A stretch of DNA of 64,000 nt from Iphione sp. A-MEVVRFRX5 (taxonomy: Eukaryota). The position numbers were made by a program, and so were the translations under genes. The notes beneath the pieces are model-generated. The model was not told where the DNA came from. It made no database searches and worked only from the letters and a program-made list of their open reading frames with translations. Below are positions 2,197 through 57,800 of this stretch, piece by piece (the first letter of the stretch is position 1; each line of letters begins with the position of its first letter). Where the stretch lies: assembly GCA_976226885.1 (NCBI GenBank), contig OZ320319.1, forward strand, positions 27,094,001-27,158,000, in the 5' to 3' direction.

Positions 2197-2200
2197 ATAT
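2197..2200. repeat. 4-bp target-site duplication ATAT (partner at 9843-9846)
   Basis: cagcATAT|TGTAGG at the left junction and AATTACA|ATATtg at the right junction. Confidence 0.9.
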
Positions 2201-2250
2201 TGTAGGGTATGGGAGGCGGTGCTGCTAAGCCTCCCATACAGGGTTGAGAT

Positions 2251-2878
2251 CGTTGGCAGTGCCACCAACCTTTTAGTATGGGAGTGTGCCTCCTGGGCCA
2301 CAGGATTGGTGGTGCCGCCAAGGTTTATGCACTGTGCTGTACTTGATGAACTCTGGGTGTGCTATTTATAGCCTGTAAGTAGGGCATGAGTGCTATTTAT
2401 AGCTGGTAGGCAGGGATCGCTGGCGGTGACGCCAACCTTTTAGTATAGGAGTGTGCCTCCTGGGCCACAGGGTTGGCGGTGTCGCCAAGGTTTATGCACT
2501 GTGCTGTACTTGATGAACTCTGGGTGTGCTATTTATAGCCTGTAAGTAGGGCATGAGTGCTATTTATAGCTGGTAGGCAGGGATCGCTGGCGGTGACGCC
2601 AACCTTTTAGTATAGGAGTGTGCCTCCTGGGCCACAGGGTTGGCGGTGTCGCCAAGGTTTATGCACTGTGCTGTACTTGATGAACTCTGGGTGTGCTATT
2701 TATAGCCTGTAAGTAGGGCATGAGTGCTATTTATAGCTGGTAGGCAGGGATCGCTGGCGGTGACGCCAACCTTTTAGTATAGGAGTGCGCCTCCTGGGCC
2801 ACAGGGTTGGCGGTGTCGCCAAGGTTTATGCACTGTGCTGTACTTGATGAACTCTGGGTGTGCTATTTATAGCCTGTA
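2251..2878 (+). repeat. 167-bp tandem array in U3 of the 5' LTR (about 3.8 units)
   Basis: CCAACCTTTTAGTAT recurs at 2265, 2432, 2599 and 2766 (period 167). Confidence 0.95.
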
Positions 2879-2959
2879 TGTAGGTCACATGTAGCAAAGG
2901 GGTTCCAAAAAAAATTACTGTGTTGCATGTTGGAGATGATCATGTGACTGACTGCTGCC

Positions 2960-2990
2960 TATATATAAGGGGCCCTGTGTGGCCAATAAA
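2960..2990 (+). promoter_or_regulatory. LTR TATA box (TATATATAA 2960-2968) and poly(A) signal (AATAAA 2985-2990); copies in the 3' LTR at +6600
   Basis: Canonical motifs directly downstream of the U3 tandem array in both LTRs. Confidence 0.7.
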
Positions 2991-3243
2991 CCAGTCTGCA
3001 CTTGGATTACGTTGTGGCTGTTGTCTCTTCAGGGAATGCTAGGAACACATACCCACTTGGATTTACCTTAGGGTTAGCCTATTGGAGTAGCGTATTGGAT
3101 TAACACATGAGGATTACTCAGCCAGGGAATTAACTACCATAGGAGGATTTACCAAGTGGAAATAACAACACACATACGACACTTGGGGATATTACTTTAT
3201 TCCAAGGAGTAACTCAAAGGAGATATAAATACGCAAATTACAC

Positions 3244-3261
3244 TGGTGTCAGAAGTGGGAT
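3244..3261 (+). promoter_or_regulatory. Primer-binding site complementary to tRNA-Leu 3' end
   Basis: TGGTGTCAGAAGTGGGAT begins 1 nt after the LTR. It is the reverse complement of ...ATCCCACTTCTGACACCA, the 3' end of metazoan tRNA-Leu(CAA) as I recall it. Confidence 0.9.
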
Positions 3262-3273
3262 TCCCCAGACAAG

Positions 3274-4125
3274 ATGGCTACAGCTTATGTCTCTGTGGAC
3301 GATGAAGTGCAGATTCGTGTCACCAGCCCGGCACCTGACACAGAAGAGGAGGAGCACTTTGAGATTGCTCCAGAAGAGCCGCTCAAGATCAACACTTTGA
3401 AGCCAGAGCGGTTTGACGGTAAGACTGTTGATTGGGACAGCTGGATCAGTCAGTTTGCGGAGTGGGCAACCGCTTGCAAGTGGGGGGAGGACACAAAATG
3501 CTCTGCATTGACCTTGTCCCTGACAGGGACAGCCCGCATGTATTATGGGGATCTCCCTGCCGAGGAAAAGAGGGATTATGCTAGCAGGGTGGCTGCCCTT
3601 GAGCGAAGATTTGGCAGAAGGAGGGATCGAGTTGTGGCAATGCAGAAACTATCAGGCATGAGACGTCAGAAAGACGAGGATGTGAGGGACTTGGCCGATC
3701 GGGTTAGGAGGCTGGTACGCACAGCATACCCCGACGTGACGGGGGAAACTAGGGAATTGGCAGCTGTTGCGGCATTCCAGAGGGCCCTAGCAGACTCCCT
3801 CCACTTGAAGTGCCTTGAAGCCAAGTGTACAACATTGGATAACGCTGTCCAGGTAGTGGAGACCCAGGAACGTTTTCGGGCAAAGGCAATTAACACCGTA
3901 CAGCAGGCTCCTATCCAGACCCCTATCGCCTCAACCCCAGCTGGGTGGAAAAAGGAGATGGAGGAACTCATAGCTCAGGAATTGCGCAACCTGAGAGAGG
4001 AAGCTAAGACACAAGAAGAAGGAAAGCCTCAGAGGCCCCGGTTCACTGGATGCTACCAGTGTGGACAACATGGCCACTTTAAGCGGGATTGTCCCCAACT
4101 ACCTACATCAGGAAACGCCAACTAG
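3274..4125 (+). CDS. gag: Retrotransposon Gag (283 aa), capsid-like region plus CCHC zinc knuckle
   Basis: ATG 12 nt after the PBS. Gypsy-type motif PERFDGKTVDWDSWISQF...W...K...L...LTGTA. CYQCGQHGHFKRDC at 4051-4092. Confidence 0.93.
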   Translation: MATAYVSVDDEVQIRVTSPAPDTEEEEHFEIAPEEPLKINTLKPERFDGKTVDWDSWISQFAEWATACKWGEDTKCSALTLSLTGTARMYYGDLPAEEKRDYASRVAALERRFGRRRDRVVAMQKLSGMRRQKDEDVRDLADRVRRLVRTAYPDVTGETRELAAVAAFQRALADSLHLKCLEAKCTTLDNAVQVVETQERFRAKAINTVQQAPIQTPIASTPAGWKKEMEELIAQELRNLREEAKTQEEGKPQRPRFTGCYQCGQHGHFKRDCPQLPTSGNAN

Positions 4126-4212
4126 CTGGCCCAGTAGGCCCGGGGGAGCATGGCTGATCCAGTCCCCCCGGGGTGCATAAGGGAGCAAGGCTGGGGGCCA
4201 TGCTTAGGTAAG

Positions 4213-5069
4213 CATAAGGGGTGGCAACTATATACTTCTGGTGGATACGGGGGTAGGAGTTTCCATTGTTTACCCTGGGGTAGTTCTTGGCCTTGAAGGT
4301 AAAAGGGGACAGACCTGGATTAATGGGGCGGGTGGACAGGTAATCCCCATGCTAGAAACAGAGGTCCTAGGGATAGAAAGTAGTAGAGAGACAGTTTTTC
4401 TCACCCTTTCCTGATAGCTCAGACTGGAGAAGAGGGTATCTTGGGGAATGATTTCTTAAATCATCATCAGGCAGTCATAGACCTGGCACAAGGGAGGGTT
4501 CGCTTTGATGGTGAGTCAGGGGCGCAGCAGCGTCCTGGGAAAGTAACCGCTCTACGTGGAGCCCATGACGTGTCCCTTTCCATGGGAGTGGGGCGGGGGC
4601 CACTGTCTTACTGACCAATCCTGAGGGTGCCTTGCCTCTAATAGAGGGGTTGGATGAGAAGTGGATGAAACAAGGGATCTTTGGGCTGTTAGCTCAGACA
4701 GTGGGGCAGCCTGACGTGGTACAATCCGAGATTTATTTGCTGGGCCCCCATCCCATTAAGCAGCCCCCATAGAGGGCCCTAACCGCCCCTGGGGTGGGAG
4801 TAACAGGGGCTAGTGGGGGAAATAAGGGTCTTGGGGGTGACCCAGGAGAGTGGGAGGTAGTCAGGCGGCTCGATGATGAGCGTTTGATGATACAGCGGAC
4901 GCAAAAGGCGAAGCTGAAGGTGGTTCATAGGAACCGGCTACGACGTTGCCAGGGAGACGATCTTCCTCGGTGGATTTTGACACTAAGGAAGAAGATGGTG
5001 GCGTCGCGGGAGAACGGAGAGGTCAAAACGAAGACTTCGGGCGTGGGGGGAACGGATCCCCCGGAGTAG
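4213..5069 (+). pseudogene. pol: Decayed, internally deleted pol: aspartic protease relic, first residues of RT, integrase C-terminal tail
   Basis: LLVDTGVGVSIV (DTG at 4244-4252), with stops at 4412-4417. GILGNDFL (4435-4458) lies in another frame. HPIKQPP*RAL (4749-4781) resembles the start of RT. KGL...WEVVRRLDD..MIQ....K.KVVHRNRLRRCQG...P.W resembles the GPY/F tail of Gypsy integrases. No YxDD, RNase H or DDE core is visible. Confidence 0.85.
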
Positions 5070-6094
5070 CCGGAGTCAGGAAGAATTGGGGGTATAAGCA
5101 CCCAGGTGGCACTCAAAAAGTTCATGGAAGGTGGTGGAACACCTGGAGCGTGTAGCGTTCAAAAGTTCCAGTAGGACATGACGGACGTCCTGAGGATCAT
5201 CAGTATCCAAAACGAGTCCGTGTTGGGGTAGACTCCCTGTAAGCATCCAAAAAGTTCTGGGAGGCAAAAACGAGGAGAGCCTGGAGCTGCCAGAAGCTTA
5301 GAATGCTCCTCGGAAGGAGAGAGTAGACATCCTGGGGGCCATGTGGGCCCTGAAAAGGTCTAGGAGGAGGGCGGACATCCTGGGACGCTTAAAAAGGTCT
5401 GGAGTGGGAGGATGAACATCCCAGAGTGCACAAAAGAGCTTATGGAATGCACAGGGCTATTGGAGAGGGCCCGGAGTTAGACGCGGAAAGCTCAAAACGA
5501 TCTCCAGAGGGGTCGATAGGTAGGCCCCTGAGAGGAGCAACCGAGAGGGCGACTAGGACGCGAACAGGCTGTTCCATGAAAAGTTTGATCCCCCCTTACC
5601 ACCAAGGGGTGGGAGAGAAACAAGACTTCACACCGTCGCCGCACGGAACGCTATTCAAACTGCTGGTCATCCCCGCTGGGGGAACACTTGGGCCAGGATG
5701 TAACCCATGGCTTCTGAAAGACAAGAGGCCCATCGGGGGCGTGGTGAGGAAGAGTAGCACTACACATGGATGACAACCCCAGGAGGGGGAGGGGTAGCTA
5801 TTGGCTGGCTGAATGACTGACTGAACCAAGCTGCCGTCCATTTCCTCTAGGAGAAGGCGAAGACCAAGATGCTGTCCATTTCCTCTGGGGGACGCCAGCT
5901 GCTCGGCTGCCAGAACAAGGTAGACAACAGTGAGATCCTCAGGGAGGAAGAGGCCATGCTGGGTTAGTGAGGTGAGGTAGGGAGGAAGAGCCATGATGGG
6001 TTCGACCTGTCTTCACCAACGGCGAGTCAACGACTGACGGCGGGCCACGCCCCCCCACTGACTTATATAGCATCACGACTGGGGAGGAAATGCG

Positions 6095-6935
6095 TGGCGG
6101 ACCCGCCGACGAACAAAAATTAAAGCGCAATGCCTGTCCCGACCCAGGAGAATGTTGGCGACCCCGCCACCGAAGAAATTCTACGACGCAATAAAAAGAA
6201 GGGGTGGCGACCCCGCCATCGAGGTAATTACGTCAGGAGTGGCGGCTCCGCCACTGACATTGAAGGGGAACGACACGTCGTGGGGATCGTCCACGACAGA
6301 GGTGTGGCGGCCCCGCCAACGATCCTTGCCAAAGAAACTAAGACGAACTGAGTGGCGACCCCGCCACTAAGAGAGGTTGCAAGGCAACTACGTCGCAAAA
6401 ATAACATTCAATTACCAGAGCGTTCATCGTGTTGAGCTTGGCGGAACCGCCAACAACAATGGTCAGACTGGTGGCGCCGCCACCGTTGGATACCGGAAGC
6501 GGGCAACCAAACCATCCGGTTTGCCTCGTTTTCAGATAGCGTGAATTGTGAACATGTGTAAGACCCGGAATGTCGGCCCCAAAGTGAGAGAAAATATAGT
6601 TTTTGGAACGAAATAACCAGGAAACACTAGGAGAGGGAGACAAGGAGGAACCAGGGATTCGCAGAGTGACGGTTGAGCCCGGGAATAGCGAAAACACTTC
6701 GCCAGCGCACGCCAAGACCCGATCGATAGCGGCACCGCCAGCATTGTACACTCTCTGGTAAGAAACCGATTTTGATAAGGGTAGTCGATCTTCCCCTAAA
6801 CTGGTAGCGGAACCACTAGCACCCCTAACACAGCAAGTATTACCCCTTGGGATTGGCGGCACCGCCGGCATCAGTCAAGAGGGGGCCCGCTACGTAGTAC
6901 GCATACCCGGGGAGGCATTGTTGGTGGTACCGCCG
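6095..6935. repeat. Cluster of about 12 spaced palindromes T(G/A)G(C/T)G-N4-C(G/A)C(C/T)(A/G) with unique spacers
   Basis: Copies start at 6095, 6156, 6205, 6240, 6305, 6353, 6439, 6469, 6727, 6805, 6854 and 6922. Confidence 0.85.
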
Positions 6936-6964
6936 ACATAGTGGATAGCAGCCCTGCCACAGAA

Positions 6965-8389
6965 ATGCCGAGGGAGCCGGTCGACCAACCAGAACGCCTG
7001 CCCCGAGTGGCAAAGGAAGGAAGGCCAGCTGGTACTGAACTCTGTGAACTGTGTACTGTGCCCCGCCCTTTCTTTCCGGGCGCGTCTATGAAGCGCCACA
7101 TAGATGACTACCACAAGGGCAAGAGGAGGAGGCATATGAGGTGTCTCTTCTGCCCCAGCATCCTGTCCCATGAGCAATCATGGATCGGACACATCAGGAA
7201 ATATCACGCATGGGTGGTGGAGATGGGGCTCACCGACAAGCCTTACCGTCGGCTCTTTGATGCTACGCCGACGGGGGAGGTGGTGGCCCCTGATGACGAG
7301 CTTACGGAAATAGTTATGGCGGCCCGGAAGAAGCGCCAAGCTGGGTGGGCATTGAGCAGGGAGGAAGCAGAGCACATGCTTGCCAACAGTACTCACCGTA
7401 CACCCCCACCTGTACCGATGCGGCGATGTGTGGAGGCACTGGCCCCGGTGGCTGCCGCCCTCCCGGGTGGGGGCCAACTGGACCGCCCCCAACTACCTGT
7501 CGTGGACCCAGCTGTTCTTCACGACATGCAGCACCAATGTGAGCCCCAACCTGGTCCATCTGGAGTGGGAGGGGACCCCCTCCTCAGCCAAGCAGCTGCA
7601 ACGCCAGGGGGTGGCCGGTCCCCAGGCGCATTGGTGCCAGTGACAGGGGCCCTCTCACCCGCCCGGAACCTTTTGTCTCCTTGGAGATCAGAAGATGACT
7701 TAGCCACAGGCGCCATGGAGGTGGGGCCACCAGAGAAGAGTACGGGACTGACTTGGTTGCCTGACGGACATCTGGCCCGTCTGGCCTGCCACCTCCTGAC
7801 TTCTGCCCAGGTTGAGCCTGCCCTGGGCCACCTACGGAACATTTTGGATGGGGTTGTTCACCCACATGTTCCAGTGATGCGGGAGGTTCCCCAACCGATG
7901 AAGATACGGCTTCCGCCTTGTCTCACATGGCCACCACAGTCCTGGAGGAAGATGTCCCCTTCCCAGCGTCTCATGGCTTGTACCGCCCTTGCCTGGGTGG
8001 TGCAGATGGCCGAAGGAGGAGAAAATGACAAGGCACTCCTGGGCCCCCTGCTCACACCTCTGCGTCGCCGTCCGGTTTTGCTGCTTCCGGGACTGGACAT
8101 CCCCAGCGAGAAGGAGTGGGGAAACCCAGACAACCTCCTCCGGTCCAATAATAAGGTGCTGGAAATGGCAGAGGGGTTCCTTAAGGAGCAACGAGGGCGT
8201 TCGCCCCCATTAAACTCCCGGTGGGCGGAGGAGACTCAGGCTATTCGGGATGAGTACCAGGCTCAACATCTGACCTTGGCAGACCTGTGCAACAACGCTG
8301 CACCCTCACAGTACCTCTTCCATCTAGACGACATATGGGGGGATGAGCTGGAGGAAGAGGGGCCAGATGAACAGGAGGCCGCGGAGTAA
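6965..8389 (+). CDS. Accessory ORF of the LTR element (474 aa from first ATG): two N-terminal C2H2 zinc fingers and an unknown C-terminal domain
   Basis: Long uninterrupted ORF; the track starts it at GTG 6941, the first ATG is 6965. Motifs CELC-x14-HIDDYH and CLFC-x12-HIRKYH, a Pro/Gly-rich linker and an acidic tail. No signal peptide or TM segment visible. Confidence 0.85.
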   Translation: MPREPVDQPERLPRVAKEGRPAGTELCELCTVPRPFFPGASMKRHIDDYHKGKRRRHMRCLFCPSILSHEQSWIGHIRKYHAWVVEMGLTDKPYRRLFDATPTGEVVAPDDELTEIVMAARKKRQAGWALSREEAEHMLANSTHRTPPPVPMRRCVEALAPVAAALPGGGQLDRPQLPVVDPAVLHDMQHQCEPQPGPSGVGGDPLLSQAAATPGGGRSPGALVPVTGALSPARNLLSPWRSEDDLATGAMEVGPPEKSTGLTWLPDGHLARLACHLLTSAQVEPALGHLRNILDGVVHPHVPVMREVPQPMKIRLPPCLTWPPQSWRKMSPSQRLMACTALAWVVQMAEGGENDKALLGPLLTPLRRRPVLLLPGLDIPSEKEWGNPDNLLRSNNKVLEMAEGFLKEQRGRSPPLNSRWAEETQAIRDEYQAQHLTLADLCNNAAPSQYLFHLDDIWGDELEEEGPDEQEAAE

Positions 8390-8954: not shown

Positions 8955-8967
8955 AAAGGGGGGAGAG
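8955..8967 (+). promoter_or_regulatory. Polypurine tract
   Basis: AAAGGGGGGAGAG directly abuts the TG of the 3' LTR. Confidence 0.92.
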
Positions 8968-9842
8968 TGTAGGGTATGGGAGGCGGTGCTGCTAAGCCTC
9001 CCATACAGGGTTGAGATCGTTGGCGGTGCCACCAACCTTTTAGTATGGGAGTGTGCCTCCTGGGCCACAGGATTGGTGGTGCCGCCAAGGTTTATGCACT
9101 GTGCTGTACTTGATGAACTCTGGGTGTGCTATTTACAGCCTGTAAGTAGGGCATGAGTGCTATTTATAGCTGGTAGGCAGGGATCGCTGGCGGTGACGCC
9201 AACCTTTTAGTATAGGAGTGTGCCTCCTGGGCCACAGGGTTGGCGGTGTCGCCAAGGTTTATGCACTGTGCTGTACTTGATGAACTCTGGGTGTGCTATT
9301 TATAGCCTGTAAGTAGGGCATGAGTGCTATTTATAGCTGGTAGGCAGGGATCGCTGGCGGTGACGCCAACCTTTTAGTATAGGAGTGCGCCTCCTGGGCC
9401 ACAGGGTTGGCGGTGTCGCCAAGGTTTATGCACTGTGCTGTACTTGATGAACTCTGGGTGTGCTATTTATAGCCTGTATGTAGGTCACATGTAGCAAAGG
9501 GGTTCCAAAAAAAATTACTGTGTTGCATGTTGGAGATGATCATGTGACTGACTGCTGCCTATATATAAGGGGCCCTGTGTGGCCAATAAACCAGTCTGCA
9601 CTTGGATTACGTTGTGGCTGTTGTCTCTTCAGGGAATGCTAGGAACACATACCCACTTGGATTTACCTTAGGGTTAGCCTATTGGAGTAGCGTATTGGAT
9701 TAACACATGAGGATTACTCAGCCAGGGAATTAACTACCATAGGAGGATTTACCAAGTGGAAATAACAACACACATACGACACTTGGGGATATTACTTTAT
9801 TCCAAGGAGTAACTCAAAGGAGATATAAATACGCAAATTACA
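8968..9842 (+). repeat. 3' LTR (875 bp), with about 2.8 units of the 167-bp repeat (9018-9478)
   Basis: Repeat anchor at 9032, 9199 and 9366. 9121-9842 matches 2521-3242 apart from one base. Confidence 0.96.
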
Positions 9843-9863
9843 ATATTGATATATTTTGCCTAA

Positions 9864-12355: not shown

Positions 12356-12870
12356 CAGAGGAACCTCGCTTACCGGAGCCCCAACAATCAGATTTTCACA
12401 TTAACTGCAACAAATTTAAATTACCAAGTGTTTTTTCTGTATAAAATGTACTATTTAACTGGATATTTGTTTTTCATAACCGGAGTGTATTTAACTACAT
12501 TCTTATATGCTTTACTATAGGAAAAAGACATACTAACCGGAATAGGAGCAAGATGATTACATAAGAGTGACAAGCAGACCAGACCCTCCTAAAAGAAGAG
12601 ACAACATAGCTCAGGGCGACTAGCATAGGTTCAAAGTCAAATACAGATGTGCGAGATGATTGCATAAGAGCAACAAGCAGGCCAGACCCTCCTAAAGCAA
12701 GACACAACATAGCACAGAGAACAAAGAAATGATACATTCTCCCTGAAATTTGCTGTTTTTTGTCACTTTCTCCTTGAAATTTACTGTTTTTTGGCACTTT
12801 CTCCATGGAATTTGCCTCAATCTCCATGAATTGGGCCATTTTTCCCTGCCAGGAGATGCATGAGTCGCTT
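12356..12870. mobile_element. Tc1/mariner(pogo)-like non-autonomous repeat; related copy at about 26565-27000; right end uncertain
   Basis: TA|CAGAGGAACCTCGCTTACCGGAG vs CAGTTGAACCTCGCCTACCGGAG. Both copies share a downstream block (ccagaccctcctaaaagaagagacaacatagc vs ccaggacctcctaaaagtagaaacaacacagc). Confidence 0.5.
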
Positions 12871-38539: not shown

Positions 38540-39252
38540 CTACCAGGCCCTTATGCCTTGATGCACCTGCGACTGGACGTAGCCTGGGTGCTGCTGCATG
38601 GGAGGCAGCGAGTTCATATTGGTGCTATAGGCGGGCGTGGAAGCCGAGTATGCAGCAAAGGGGTTCACATTGTAGGGACCGTTGTAGGTGTTGGCCATGC
38701 AAGGTTTGCCGTCCCTCACTAACACGGGCACGGCCACCCGGCGAGGGGGCTGCAGCTGGGACAGCTCCAGCGTTTTGTCCTGGCGCTGCCGCTTCATCTT
38801 GTAGCGCCTATTCTGGAACCAGATCTTCACCTGAGTCGATGTGAGTTTCAGCATGGTAGCCAGCTGCTCACGCTCGGGCGCCGACAGGTAGCGCTGCTGC
38901 TTGAAACGCCGCTCCAGTTCATACACCTGCGCCTGCGAGAATAGTACGCGCGGCTTCCGCTTGGTGCGCTGCCGCAGCAGGTGGCATTCCGTCTCGCTAT
39001 CATCTCCCCTACTGCCCCCCTTGTTACTGCTACTGCCGTGGTTGTTGTTGCTGCCACTGTTATTACTGCTGGTGCTACTGTTGTTACTGTTACTACTGCT
39101 GCCCCCGGTGGTCGAGGTATGCTTGTTGGACCCACTAGATAGGTTGTTGTGACCGGTGCTGTTGGAGAGCGATGTCGCCGAAGGAGAACTGTGGTGGTTG
39201 GTGTAACCCGACGTACTTCCAGGCACTTTGTCTAGTTCCGCACAGGAAGGTT
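38540..39252 (-). CDS. NK4: NK4/tinman (Nkx2-3/2-5/2-6 class) homeobox gene, coding exon 2: homeodomain, NK2-SD, GIRAW
   Basis: Homeodomain [60 protein letters not shown] (38962-38783) with NK2-class Tyr54. NK2-specific domain [17 protein letters not shown] and C-terminal GIRAW*. Acceptor ttgttctttgtcttcAG at 39254-39253, phase 1. Confidence 0.97.
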
Positions 39253-41149
39253 CTGAAGACAAAGAACAAAAACTTGATATAATAACATATTTCATTATTG
39301 ACAATAGAGACCCAGGAAAAAGCGATTTAATTACATGATTTTATATGTGCGTGTGCATGTGCATGCGTGTGCGTGTGTGTGAACGCGCGCGTGCCTTTGT
39401 GTGCAAGACGTGTAGGAGGAAACCTATCCCGCACAAACAGGAGGAGGCGAAACACAGAATTCTTGACGCCTCGTACTAAAAATTTGTGCAGCTGCAATTC
39501 GACAAATGCCAAGTGACTAATCGTACAATATATCGCGTAATAATCCATGCTCGTATTTTATCTGTCACATGTATGTATTCAGATTGGTGGGCTTGATAGA
39601 CTCCGCATGTCTTCCGTCTATATGGTTTTTGCATATTCCCACGGTACATTCTGAGTGATACATTTTGCATATATATCACAACACTCTTTTTTATACCTTG
39701 TTACATATATATACACACTAAATGAGCATACCACATATGCTCTATTCAGTGTGAAGGAGTAACGCTCCTGCGCACCTAAAAAAGACATACATCTGTTCGT
39801 ACACATACTGTGATGTGCATGACAGGTACAAGAAAAGAAACATTATGGTAAAGATATGGGAGAAGCACAGGTTTTACGAGTGGGTGATATTGCAATATTT
39901 TCTACAAACGTACAAGAAGATTATTTAATCGACGCATGGATAAAGCACACATGCACATGTCCTGATTATGTATACCCTCCGTTCTGCCCTAAACTGTCCA
40001 CATTTCAGACATGCCTGCCTAGGAAAAGGTAATTTTGCCATTTTGTGACCAAATGTGAATGGATTTTACTTTTTTCAGTGAAAATTGCATGAGTTTTGCC
40101 ATTTACGGCCTAATTTTCATTCAATTTCTCATTTTCATGGGCTGAATTAACATGAATTTTGCCGTTTATCGGCCCATCCTTGTCTTTTGTGTGATATTCA
40201 CACTACCACACCTCGTTTGAAGTAGTTTTGCTTCTCTGCCACAGCTCTAGTTTTTTGACACGTTGTCCGCTGGACGGTGTCATGCGAAAATAGATGTCCT
40301 GCATGAATATAGGGTACATTTCTATGGAATTCACATCTGTTCTGAGCTCATGCAACTGTCCACTATTGGGACGCATCCATACTACACGGAGGGACGTCCT
40401 ACTGTACACGTATATATGTATATGTGTGCACTTCTATCTCTAGCTATCCGTTCCTTCAAAAGCAAAGGTGGACAATTGCATAACAGCACGATGCGTACAA
40501 TAAATGTATGTACACATGAAAGCATTCTACGGCCATGTATACACATATATCTATAGGCATATGTTCCACTGAGCATAAATGCAATGTATATACTTTGGAC
40601 TATCTATACAAATGAAAACAGTTCAAATCACAGTTTCTTACGATATCTAATGCGACAGTATCTTCAGGAACATGCGTATGATTCTAATCTTTAGGACCTT
40701 GGTTTCGCATATGTACTATTCCGTGTGTTTTTTGTGTGCTTGACCCAAATATATTCCTATTCAATGACCGATCCTTCTACCTGTGGATATTTTTCTTTCA
40801 ATGTCTATTTTTCCGATAGTTAATTGTCAGTTGATAAACAAACATTTTTTGTGTTAAGAACTATGAGGAAAATTGTGTTTACACATCCATGTTATTTCCC
40901 ATGTTTCTTTTGGTTAAAACCTGTGATGATGAATGAGAAGAAGACGTCAGGAAAAAAGTTAAAGGTATACGAAAATTACAGAACTGTCTATGTCCACAAG
41001 AATAGGACTAACTTGTCATAAAATACTCATCTTATTATGAGGTAACAATGTTATTGATTGCTTTATCATACGACACAGACGATGGATATCGTCTTGATAA
41101 CGGAGCTACCGTCAAACCCTAGCCTCTCTCCCTATACGTGGTAGTTTTT

Positions 41150-52060: not shown

Positions 52061-53666
52061 TATAAACCATTTCTTTCCCGCGCTTGTAAACACAACGTCC
52101 TTCACCAAGTGCGATCCGAGGTGGCTTTGATCCCTTTAGGGCGGCCATCCTTGATAGGATCATCTCTTGATCCCGCCAAAACGGGGTGACCTCAAAGTAA
52201 GTGCACTTAAGAGGATTTCTGTTGGGACAGTTACAGTTGCCATAGTGATGTGTGGAGGAGGATCCCCCTTGACCCCCTACCCCCTGGAGGTATATAGGCC
52301 CAGCAGGAGGGGGGTAAAATACCGTAGAATGTACAAGGTACATGTACAACCGCCTGGCGGTAGGCTGGCGTTGCCGGCCCAGGTGGTCCCTCTCCTCCCG
52401 GAGGCCCCGTCGGGCTCTCGTGGGTGCAAACACCCGCTCCGACATATATACAAGTACATATATATATATCCATGTATATATTCCCTGGAATATACGTAGG
52501 TTCACAAGCACTGGAAACACATAGGAGGGAAAGGATTCAACTACAGAGAGGTTATCAAATACATATACATGTATTCAAAAGAGCGACAGCATTTTCTCGC
52601 TTTGATCTCAATTGTTATGGTGAAATTTATGCTGATCCAAGAATTTTGACTCGTTTAAGTTTGCTTGCTACAGTGGTTCTTCGATGTTCGTCAAAGAACG
52701 TAGTTATTGCACAAAACGGAGAACTTCTCCGCTTAAATAGACTATTGAAACCCTCATAGAGTAAGTAATCTCACCAATCATTATATGGCTCTATGTGTCA
52801 CGTAAACTAGAGCTAATATACGTGTACATTGTATATGCAAACTAACGTTTAACCAAGACATAAATTTATAGGTACTTTTTGTCTAAAAGTAAATGTGTGG
52901 ACCGCCTTTTTTGATCCAAAGGAGTGAATTGTAATCGAGCAAATACAATGTGCGATAACCTGATCTAACTGGGATGTCAAATAGCTCACCTTATGATATC
53001 GTTACTCTAATACTATACAGACGAAAAAGCCAAATGCGCCGAGAGGTCTTCGTTATAAGCAGTGGTTTGATATCTTATATCCCACAGGGATATCGAAATG
53101 GGAGGAGGCTCTGCTGGTAAATCACACTGCATCAACAAATAGCTCTGCCAACGAATGCTAGCCTTTCCACGAAATGTAGATATTACAGATCAAATGAACA
53201 TACAATGTATTTTCATTCTGTGTGCAGCATTTGGAGACCGAACAAATAATTAAACGAAGAGTGGAAGGAGCAGAAAAGGTGAAAAAGGTATTATTCATAC
53301 AAGTATATGAAGGAAGGAAAAGAGGAGACAGACAGACAGGGACACGGAGAGAAGGATGGGGCACAAGGGAACAGAGAAATGAATGAAGTGTATCAGCGGT
53401 TCATTTTGGCGAGATTTTTAGAACAGATTTTTTCCTGTATTTCTTAGGAGGGTTCACACTGCGTCTCATTGCCCTTTGACATGCGAAAATGTCCCATCAA
53501 AATCACCATGTAAAAGAATTGATCGAACTCTAGGTTTTACTTGTCAATTTTTCATCATTAGAATTAATCCAAAAACGAAATGAATATCTCCCCCTCCCCT
53601 TAGACACTAGTAAATGTGCTGCTTTGTATTGTGTTGTAGGATTAGGTAATAAGGAAACAGTCTTAC

Positions 53667-54477
53667 TTTTGTCTAGGTTGCTGAGGTCTTCCCTCGTCGG
53701 TGCATGGCCTGCTTGTGTAGGTGCAGGCGGTGCTAAGGGGCTGCTGTTGGCGAGTCCGGCGGGAGGAGAGGGAGGACCGCCCGGTAGAGAGAGCCCGAAC
53801 TCGGCGCCTAGCCGGGCCAGGGTGCTGGCCGTCAAGTCGCTGTACGGGCTGTAGGCAGGTGGGGGCGGCACGGTTCCGGGGCCACCTCCCCCGGCGCTTC
53901 CACCCCCGGTCGTGGCTCCCGGCCCGCCGGTCGTTGCCCCAGGTCCGCCCGGTCCGGAGGTGCCAGGGTGGTGCATGAGGGACCCCGTACTACCATACTC
54001 ACAGGAGGACACGGCTGAACTGACACTGGAGATGCTCTCCTGGATCTGTTGGAGCATTGAAGATGACTGACTGATCCCTGGCAGTCCGGGAACCATGGAG
54101 GACGAGTCTGCAGCCATTGTCATGGAGTGGTGGTGGTGGTGAGGTGCTCCTGTGAGGTGGTGCGTGCCCAGGTGAGGATGGTGGTGGTGGTGATGCCCAT
54201 GGTGGTGGTGGTGATGGTAGCCCGACCCTCCACCGCCGGCGTGCGCGCCGCCTCCTGCTGCCGCCGCCGTCGCGCCCGCCGCAGCCGCCGCCGCTGCAGC
54301 CGCCGCCGTCGCTCCCTGGTAGCTCATTGCTCCCTGCTGGAAATCCAAAGCACAGTTGGCCTGGTCAGTAAGGTTGAGGATGTTCTTGACGGAGAAAGGG
54401 GTTGGCAGCGCGCCGCCGCCGCTTACAGAAGCCAGCAACGACGCCGAGTCTGTCTCCATACCCCCGAGCACATACAT
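53667..54477 (-). CDS. NK4: NK4/tinman homeobox gene, coding exon 1: TN/eh1 domain, poly-Ala, poly-His and Gly/Pro-rich tracts
   Basis: TN motif TPFSVKNILNL (54402-54370). Donor GACAAAA|GTAAGA at 53667/53666. 811 nt gives phase 1, matching exon 2, for a 507-aa protein. The start could instead be the second Met (54459). Confidence 0.92.
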
Positions 54478-54699
54478 ACAGCAGGCGAGTCACTGGCTCA
54501 CACAATGATACGGCTCGCCCAAATCACCCCAATCCTCCTCTCAGATTGTCCCCAGTTCTCCTCAAACCTGCTGACAAGGCGCCTTCGAAAAGGTCCGAAG
54601 ACCCTGGAATCTACCCCTGTAGTAATCTCCTCGTTTCTAAAGACAATAAGATCCTCCGCCACAGGTCTCTCCTGTCTGTGTCGGTTATTGGAAATGGTT

Positions 54700-54860: not shown

Positions 54861-57800
54861 GGCTGGCGGAAGAAAACTAGGATGAGGGAGTGTTGGAGGT
54901 CGGAGAAGTACAACTGGGAGCGCAAGTCCGGTCCACGACGCGTGCTGATAGTGTGGGAGGGATGGCAGGAGAGGAGAGGAGTGAGAGAGAAAGAGATAGA
55001 GAGTATACGCGGATGTCAGGCTGGCCGGTCAAAGTGTGCGACTCGTCAGGTCGACCTGTCTTCTACGACTGAAGCCTGGATGGATGGATGGGAGGGTGCG
55101 TTGGTAGATGGCTGGGTGCATGGGCGTCCTAGCTGCCCTACCCTCCCGCCCTCCCTCCCAGTTCTCCCCACGTGCGTCTGTATGCGTGCGCGTTCGTGGG
55201 TGTGTGCTGTCTGCGTCGGCGCGAAATTACTGGATGATTCAGCTAATTTGTATATGCATATGCTTTATGTATGTGTGCATGTATGTGCGTTCTACCGCAC
55301 ACACTACTACTCATTCCCTTCTCGCTGGTATAGACGCGTCTCAATGTGCGTACATACAAGTATGTATAATGGACATGTGTTCATGATTATCCCACCCTAA
55401 TTGGTTGTTTTGTGATTATGAGTGAGACCATTTGGTAGATGAAAAAGTGTTTTACATGTGGGTGTGTATGTGTAGTGAGTGGTTTAGAAATGAGCGAGTT
55501 TTTTCTGTGGAACTATAGGTATAATTATGTTGGCGTTGGGTACATAGCGCTAGAGCATTTGGTGCGTTGTTCGGTCGCATGCCATGGTTGGATATGTATA
55601 AATGTATATATGTGTGTGTGTGGATAGGTGGGAGGAGTGCTCTGACGATCTTTCAGCAGAGCCCTGGAGAACTCTGCACACAGTTTGGTCGGGCGGGCCA
55701 CTAGGCGGTGACGGTGACATCGGCGGGAACGACAGCGTGGCAGCGACGCCAGTGTGGATTGGCAGCAGGTCAGCGTGAGAGGTGCTGCAAGGAGCTGCGA
55801 AGAGGAGTCAGACAGGGAAGGGGATGGTGGGACGGCAGGAATGAACTGAACGACAAGGGGTTGGAGGGGGTGCCAGATGCTGACATGGAAGGAAGGCAAG
55901 GGATATATGCATTCATGTACATGCATATGGAAGGAAAATGGAAGAGAAAAAAAGCGAGAAAGCAATGCTACAGGCAGATGGACAGCACAGATATAAAGAT
56001 AGAAAAGTGCGTGCAAAGATAGGAGGAGATGAGATAAATGAATGAAGGATTTGTGTTAATGTAGCGGGGGAGGAAGTTGGCTCGGCGGCGTTTGCTAGGC
56101 GGACAGTGAGGGGTCTGTGGCGGGTGTTTACAGCAGGGTCGCCACTCTGGCTGCGGCCTTCTACCTCAGGCATCGCGCCAGTCCCGCTGGTTTGGCTCTT
56201 CTCCTCCAGTCTCCTCCTCCTCCTCCTCCTTGATTCTCTTCCCCTCCTCCTCGTCCACAGCTGCTGTCGTCCCCTTAACGTACACACGATACACCAACCC
56301 ACAGCCCCCCCCCCCTTCCCGCGCCACGGAAACACAGATTCAAGATCAACTCTCTCTCCCTCTCTCCCTGTCTTTCTCTCTCCCTCTAAAATTCTCGAAT
56401 CCACATCCCTGAACCCATTCTTTCGTTACTCTAAGCAAACAAAAGTGCCACAGACTTCATGCATTCATAGTTTCTTAGAAAACACTGAAAGACGTAAGCA
56501 AACGCCTTAATTTTCCTGAAGAGATGCTAATTGAAATCCTACTTTGGCATTTCTTCTTGCCTTTGTCAATCAACCACGTGGTCGGCTCATACACCTCTTG
56601 TAATTCTACTTCAGCATCGCGCAAGGTTTCACAAAATTGTCATTCGATTTCATTCAGTTCGCTACACCTCATTTTTGAAATATAATTCATAATGACTGTT
56701 CCTAATGAAATGTTAACAGATTGGGCTCCCTAGCTCTTTATGACGTTTGGAGTCAGAAACATTTGATATATTACTTCTTCAGTGCCTACAATAACTTACT
56801 CGTAGAGATGGCGGGGGGGGGGTTGCCTTAGAGGTCGTCTGCATTTTGTAAGCCCATTTTGTTTAAAAGTTGTCTGCCTTTTGTAACTTTTGTCTTTATA
56901 CGAAGTGACGGATCCATGGGGGACATCGTGCAAGAACAACTGGCGACGGCTACCGTCACCGCGGTAATCAATTACCCCTTTCAGGAGGGAGGGGGTGGAA
57001 TGAGGGGTTATTGTTTTAGTAGGACGGCCACGTGAAGTCGTCACAGTGTCTCCAGACAACTTGCACCATGGCCGGCAACAGTGATCCTGACTTGCACTAA
57101 CATCAACTAGCACCATACACGAACTCCTCCCGTCCCATCTTGAATATATCCTCCTCAGAACTGTTATCTCACAGGTGTTCTTTTAGATTCACTTCAAACA
57201 CTATGAAATATAGCGAGAGATATATGGTGGGCTGAAACTGAAGATGGCGAAGGCTCACTTTTGGGGATTGGCAAAAGTTACCTATGATATAAGTTGAGTG
57301 TGAATGTGTGATAGTGCGAGTTGGTTTATTGCCCAAACTACAAGGTGCAAGATAACTATACAAAGCCATTTCTTTTCCCTTGGGGGGCAATATTTCGGTG
57401 TTTCATATCCAGGTAGATGTATATGTTAATAAACGTAGGTCCTGGGACAATGAGCACCATAACCAATTCGCGACATAACCAATTCACGCCAACACCAACT
57501 CACTCCTCTGCGCCCGAAGACGCATAAAATCTTAGATGTCTGTAGAATTCGGAATATTTCATCTTAGACTGATAAATTTGCAGTAGGCATTATAATTGTT
57601 CTTCGCATCCTAAAATAACGACAATTTGTCATGCAGAAGTTGAATTATGTTGGCCTAAAGTTAGCAGGGTGTGATCCGGTGCAACAGCCCGCTTCGGCGA
57701 TGACGCGAACCGGCGATGGCTCAAGACGGCTATGGTGCGAGATAGTTTTCGCGCAAATTACCACTCTTTTGAAATATTTCACTTCTTCTGGCGAAAATGT

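Follow-up and report, generated by a model that had tools for sequence, protein, structure and literature searches.

It is common to find extra open reading frames (ORFs) between pol and the 3′ LTR, most of them lacking an explanation, and the question raised by the present locus is what such a frame does when it stays open beside a ruined pol. In the window, the whole 64-kb stretch of DNA that was analysed, we found a 7.6-kb Gypsy-type LTR element with an intact gag and an intact third frame, ORF3, from which most of pol is gone. A preliminary description of this stretch had taken ORF3 for a nuclear regulatory accessory protein; the anatomy of the protein (two fingers, two basic clusters and an acidic tail) fits that proposal, and a palindrome recurring in the element supplies a concrete candidate target. 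The element comprises the following parts:

2197..2200, strand not applicable: 5′ target-site duplication, ATAT
2201..3242, plus strand: 5′ LTR with TG...CA ends and a 167-bp tandem unit in U3
3244..3261, plus strand: primer-binding site (PBS), which we take to be tRNA-Leu-like
3274..4125, plus strand: intact gag, 283 aa, with one CCHC knuckle (Pfam zf-CCHC, E 4e-6)
4126..5069, plus strand: pol remnant, consisting of a broken protease-like stretch, a short stub like the N-terminus of reverse transcriptase (RT) and an integrase C-terminal tail
6965..8389, plus strand: ORF3, 474 aa, ATG to TAA, candidate self-encoded transcription regulator
8955..8967, plus strand: polypurine tract (PPT)
8968..9842, plus strand: 3′ LTR with TG...CA ends, shorter by one 167-bp unit
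9843..9846, strand not applicable: 3′ target-site duplication, ATAT

TG...CA ends and a target-site duplication of 4–6 bp characterise LTR elements in the available text of PMC12440569, and the present element has TG...CA LTRs, a target duplication, a PBS, a PPT and a CCHC gag, as Ty3/Gypsy elements (Metaviridae) do; its membership is assigned by anatomy rather than by an RT tree, since this copy has lost the RT core, and searches of the library and of GTDB found no named relative. Beyond the one 167-bp tandem unit, the two LTRs differ at 2 of 875 bp, and this near-identity points to a recent insertion. Gag contains a weak DUF1759 match (Pfam, E 0.012) and found a single relative, 81% identical (P0002, an ENA record), in the library search, with no longer relative in that search and none in GTDB genomes. 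A splice-donor consensus, AGGTAAG, lies at 4206, shortly past the gag stop, and a spliced route to ORF3 from this donor is possible.

The preliminary description called pol decayed, and what is left is indeed riddled with stops (15–19 per frame), but most of the gene is missing outright: ~0.95 kb remains between gag and the integrase tail, and the RT core, RNase H and the integrase core are gone. The surviving pieces follow the order protease-like, RT-stub-like and integrase tail, the first two recognised by eye with no Pfam match for either, and the tail by a match to Integrase_p58_C (PF22938, E 0.0014) under the curated cut-off. Since complete RT, RNase H and integrase are not present, the element is non-autonomous, and because its LTRs are nearly identical, the damage to pol is older than the present insertion. 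Past the integrase tail, the spacer at 5100–5600 is non-coding DNA with short degenerate purine-rich repeats.

ORF3 follows the integrase tail at a distance of ~1.9 kb, beyond an array of palindromes, and is a true coding sequence. Its frame is free of stops already from 6800, and a stop-free frame of 474 codons arose in none of 1,000 dinucleotide shuffles of 6800–8389 (maximum 374); the base-by-codon-position bias has a p value of 6e-11 in ORF3, 5e-5 in gag and 0.78 in the non-coding spacer. Given that pol was wrecked before the insertion while gag and ORF3 stayed open, it is plausible that ORF3 has been kept under selection. The 474-aa frame, the two C2H2 motifs and the KGKRRRH linker reported in the preliminary description are all present, as are its low-complexity middle and the C-terminal motif that it quoted, and the protein divides as follows:

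7043..7207, plus strand: tandem C2H2-type fingers, aa 27–81, with the basic linker KGKRRRH
7400..7744, plus strand: P/G/A/S-rich linker, aa 146–260, 48% P/G/A/S
7745..8299, plus strand: orphan C-terminal region, aa 261–445, with no family or homologue in the searches given below
8300..8386, plus strand: acidic-aromatic tail, aa 446–474, net charge −11, putatively activation-domain-like

Finger 1 reads C27-x2-C30-x14-H45-x4-H50 and finger 2 reads C60-x2-C63-x12-H76-x4-H81, joined by KGKRRRHMR, a tandem arrangement that conforms to the C-x2-C...H-x3-5-H pattern of classical C2H2 DNA-binding proteins. The spacing of finger 1, with 14 residues, is atypical, as are the recognition residues at −1/+3/+6, which are P/S/R in finger 1 and H/S/G in finger 2, and the Pfam finger matches lay under the cut-off (zf-C2H2_12, E 0.044; zf-C2H2_4, E 0.18). 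The orphan region is probably helical; AlphaFold2 run without an alignment gave unusable models, with a mean pLDDT of 38.3 for the whole of ORF3 and 38.7 for aa 262–445. The last 30 residues form the most acidic window of the protein, and the tail is rich in aromatics and leucine.

ORF3 resembles the env genes of errantiviruses and other Metaviridae in position, between pol and the 3′ LTR, and in that respect only. A simple hydropathy window scan, which is not a trained signal-peptide or membrane-segment predictor, found no hydrophobic segment in ORF3 (best 19-residue Kyte–Doolittle mean 0.86; N-terminus 0.02), and having neither a signal peptide nor a membrane segment, ORF3 is not env. The earlier statement that no env hallmarks are visible therefore holds for these two features but not for the furin-type string, as an R-x-K/R-R sequence does occur, RKKR at aa 121–124. 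With the signal peptide missing, a second nuclear localisation signal is a likelier reading of this basic cluster than a furin site. The accompanying premise that extra ORFs at this position are usually env-like was overstated, as most env-position ORFs are without clear homology or an assigned function, notably in plants, according to the available text of PMC10309623.

Searches for relatives of ORF3 returned very little. Run over 1.84 billion representatives, phmmer gave a single hit, to a tandem C2H2 protein of generic type (E 2.2e-5, aligned over aa 24–84 only), and no host-gene homologue, and a word-index search yielded 0 of 8,000 candidates. The ESM Atlas gave weak generic zinc-finger leads under the recognition threshold for the whole of ORF3 and no usable match for aa 260–460; Pfam gave no match for the whole of ORF3, PHROGs returned 0 of 3 queries, PDB sequences offered nothing better than E 0.28, and no copy was found in GTDB genomes or elsewhere in the 64-kb window. 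A link to TatD-bearing mollusc elements, also considered, found no support in a literature search of the library.

A candidate target for the fingers, absent from the preliminary description, is the palindrome TGGCGG-NN-CCGCCA, which forms two arrays in the element:

2214..2821: U3 palindrome array lying ahead of the LTR TATA box, with 7 copies at ≤1 mismatch and 9 at ≤3
6095..6959: internal palindrome array, 10 copies at ≤1 mismatch and 13 non-overlapping at ≤3

With at most one mismatch, the 5′ LTR has 7 copies of the palindrome and 6051–6964 has 10, and there is none in gag-pol, 5101–6050, ORF3, the 3′ UTR or 56,358 bp of host flank; not one appeared in any of 200 shuffles of each array region, the long host flank being shuffled 3 times only. 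When up to 3 mismatches are allowed, 7 palindromes are counted in the 3′ LTR. TGGCGG-NN-CCGCCA was also the top exact spaced palindrome when 5071–6964 was scanned without reference to any motif, and half-site pairs were concentrated at a spacer of 2 (19 pairs), with none at 1, 3, 4, 6 or 7, two at 0, three at 5 and one each at 8–10; 26 of the 27 exact half-sites in the element lie within listed palindromes. Inverted repeats of constant spacing are the hallmark of proteins that bind DNA as dimers.

Site statistics were taken over 18 palindromes, 5 from the 5′ LTR and 13 internal, leaving out 4 tandem 5′ LTR copies, the 7 in the 3′ LTR, one overlapping internal match, three 3-mismatch matches in pol/ORF3 and 12 host matches at 2–3 mismatches; the column conservation of the palindrome is partly circular, as the sites were chosen by consensus. 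The spacer letters of the internal sites vary, and the identity of their flanks is 0.30 against a background of 0.29, so the internal array is not a recent duplicate of itself or of the LTR: the motif has been kept, not simply duplicated. In U3, the 167-bp units (2248–2880 and 9015–9480) contain two palindromes each, and minus-strand TATAAATA strings are present in every unit. The 5′ LTR is one such copy ahead of the 3′ LTR, so either the number of palindromes changes fast or the assembly differs. The only host match at 2 mismatches, at 55738, lies ~1.2 kb upstream of the first exon of a homeobox gene and is probably due to chance, with shuffles averaging 0.67 such matches.

Both arrays lie beside promoter-like signals:

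2962..2996, plus strand: putative LTR core promoter, with TATATAAG at 2962, AATAAA at 2985 and an Inr-like CCAGTC with its A at 2993
6032..6069, minus strand: TATATAAG (6069) and Inr TCAGTC (6037), pointing away from the array, a consensus match
6871..6876, plus strand: Inr consensus TCAGTC, a consensus match only, with the ORF3 start as the next ATG downstream

Every LTR palindrome lies upstream of the TATATAAG at 2962. The internal array is flanked on its left by the minus-strand TATA and Inr, a candidate antisense promoter by consensus, and near its right end by the plus-strand Inr (6871), downstream of which sit two palindromes; the TATA-to-Inr distance is 34 bp in the antisense pair and 31 bp in the LTR. 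With the motifs masked, the CpG observed/expected ratio of the internal array is 0.99, compared with 0.49 across the remaining internal DNA of the element (Poisson p 1.5e-5), an excess expected of a promoter spared from methylation; the ratio of the LTR is 0.39. Each TGGCGG half-site contains a CpG, and 9 of the 23 departures from the consensus are CpG transitions. Judged from base composition and motif matches, the internal array, CpG-island-like in character, may act as an internal promoter or an enhancer, and as a promoter it may be bidirectional and give antisense RNA. The antisense frame behind the TATA at 6069 and the Inr at 6037 (5596–5994, minus strand) has a 38-bp-spaced duplication, and a minus-strand AATAAA stands at 4737. 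As a fourth gene this antisense ORF (5994 to 5596, 132 aa) was rejected: its length was reached in 77 of 1,000 shuffles, its periodicity gave p 0.31 and Pfam found no match.

Taking these observations together, and by analogy with known systems, we tentatively favour, at a little under an even chance, the reading that ORF3 is the element's own sequence-specific activator, expressed from an internal promoter and acting at the palindromes in U3 and in the internal array. The internal array would serve as a promoter with a start near the Inr at 6873 and yield the ORF3 mRNA, whose protein product would move into the nucleus, where two copies would occupy the two TGGCGG half-sites as a dimer and the acidic tail would recruit the transcription machinery. 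ORF3 would then raise the output of its own promoter and activate the LTR. The resulting full-length RNA would be packaged by the Gag of the element and copied by the Pol of an autonomous relative. Such a circuit would explain why gag and ORF3 were retained in a lineage without pol, and it is favoured by the position of ORF3, an intact frame whose product combines two fingers, basic clusters and a tail that is acidic and aromatic, immediately downstream of a palindrome array.

Several points speak against the activator: the canonical C2H2 code makes the finger residues no clear reader of TGGCGG, the spacing of finger 1 is atypical, LTRs commonly amplify sites for host factors, and the sole TATA at the array is antisense, the sense side offering an Inr match only. 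The first of these also favours the main, though unlikely, alternative, in which a dimeric host transcription factor reads the palindromes and drives both the LTR and the internal promoter, while ORF3 has another role such as protein–protein defence evasion or tethering of the integration complex. Also in its favour, by raw count, a Mad-type GRCGNC overlaps 10 of the 18 sites and an E2F-type motif 5, whereas NFI and Sp motifs overlap none of the 18 and Brinker 2. The Smad 5GC motif, as given in the available text of PMC7810915, matches 3 of the 18 palindromes, with GGCGCC in one and GTCTG in none. The full fixed-spacer palindrome is explained by none of the handful of host motifs tried, and no copy of it within one mismatch occurs in 56 kb of flanking host DNA, a developmental homeobox locus among it, both of which argue against a host factor. 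A smaller probability goes to ORF3 binding the arrays as an anti-silencing factor that keeps the family unmethylated, like VANC, or as a self-limiting repressor. Motif copy is high inside the element and low elsewhere, as VANC requires in the available text of PMC6719617, the CpG in each half-site, the CpG transitions and the escape of the internal array from CpG loss all suit protection from methylation, and the two palindromes past the sense Inr stand where a bound protein could repress. However, the acidic-aromatic tail suggests activation, the CpG-poor state of the array-bearing LTR implies that protection is not general, and an active promoter alone could account for the CpG island.

The palindromes could also act as RNA hairpins, with ORF3 as a Rev- or CERV-like factor for RNA export or packaging, a prospect to which we give a slim chance. 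It has a Gypsy precedent in CERV of Cer1, which is needed for genomic RNA export in the available text of PMC10309623; full-length RNA would include the internal array and the 3′ U3, and two sites form local hairpins in a fold model of 6085–6385. Yet the folding z score reaches only −1.94 and is equalled by 3 of 100 shuffles, pairing does not carry on reliably into the flanks (Watson–Crick at 7, 9 and 3 of the 18 sites at positions −1, −2 and −3), Rfam gave 0 matches, and a hairpin would not need a fixed loop length. Finally, we consider it very improbable that ORF3 is a captured host gene, a neutral passenger of one lineage or a divergent env. In its favour, ORF3 was observed in one copy only, and transduced ORFs are limited to single or few copies in the available text of PMC11963269; in addition, the missing host homologue is weak evidence, because the libraries are poor in relatives even of gag (one match). 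Against a passenger stand that same missing homologue among 1.84 billion representatives, the intact frame next to a wrecked pol, and an upstream array that shares its motif with the LTR, while env is excluded by the lack of a signal peptide and a membrane segment.

Known systems offer parallels to the activator reading, each with limits. In the available text of PMC7390438, foamy virus Tas is expressed from an internal promoter, binds both there and in U3, and carries a C-terminal acidic activation domain. The present element is like foamy Tas/Bel1 in having a regulator gene 3′ of the structural genes, a candidate internal promoter, candidate targets in U3 and internally, and an acidic tail; by contrast, it is Gypsy-type rather than a retrovirus, has no env and uses a C2H2 pair, and with no similarity to Tas detected in Pfam, PDB or library searches the likeness is one of working only. 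Moreover, the LTR and internal-promoter sites of Tas share little sequence (PMC7390438, available text), whereas one palindrome occurs in both places here. VANC21 and VANC6 of Arabidopsis VANDAL elements act via a short motif enriched in their own element (PMC6719617, as available), and the present element likewise pairs an accessory protein of its own with a short motif that is abundant within it and scarce outside; VANDALs, however, are plant DNA transposons with a tandem motif and demethylation as the output, whereas the palindrome here has a spacer and belongs to an LTR element. The ORFs of Retand (TRP28) and maize Grande likewise occupy the interval from pol to the 3′ LTR, are frequently accompanied by repeat arrays, have been proposed as nuclear regulators, and are in some cases carried by non-autonomous elements (PMC11963269, as available). 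Those ORFs are mostly antisense with TRP28 (PF04195), in contrast to ORF3, which is sense, C2H2-bearing, animal and paired with a motif common to U3, and the word zinc is absent from the available text of that paper. CERV of the Caenorhabditis elegans Gypsy element Cer1 is a nuclear accessory protein with a basic nuclear localisation signal and a possible zinc finger (PMC10309623, as available), comparable to ORF3 in being the accessory product of a Gypsy element in an animal and in having a basic cluster; it differs in acting in RNA export and in a possible finger of C4 type, and it showed no similarity to ORF3 in the library searches. ORF3 belongs to a known category, the accessory ORF of a Gypsy-type element, here joined by a candidate palindromic operator.

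A broader claim, possible but one that we lean against, is that an animal Gypsy lineage independently evolved the control of complex retroviruses, with a C2H2 transactivator, an internal promoter, a shared palindromic operator and a positive-feedback switch kept by pol-less derivatives. Library searches of the open literature turned up no C2H2 transactivator encoded by an LTR retrotransposon, though Repbase, supplements or subscription journals may already list the family.

The host is an animal, and the element lies ~29 kb downstream of an NK-class homeobox gene with two exons on the minus strand (53530–54489 and 38540–39340), whose homeodomain has Nkx2.5 as its best match (E 5.5e-29) and which is probably NK4/tinman-like. 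ARAGORN called a tRNA-Arg(CCT)-like sequence in the intron of this gene (52355–52445, plus strand), possibly a SINE or a pseudogene, and related short degenerate repeat families occupy the host flank at 12548–12717 and 26810–27037. An insertion at this distance from an NK-class gene could supply a developmental locus with an inducible enhancer array. With a candidate protein and a candidate operator within one 7.6-kb element, the two form a directly testable pair, which, if the activator reading is true, would be compact and orthogonal. Self-regulation of the Tas/Tax type would then extend beyond complex retroviruses, and whole families could come under the control, in trans, of non-autonomous elements.
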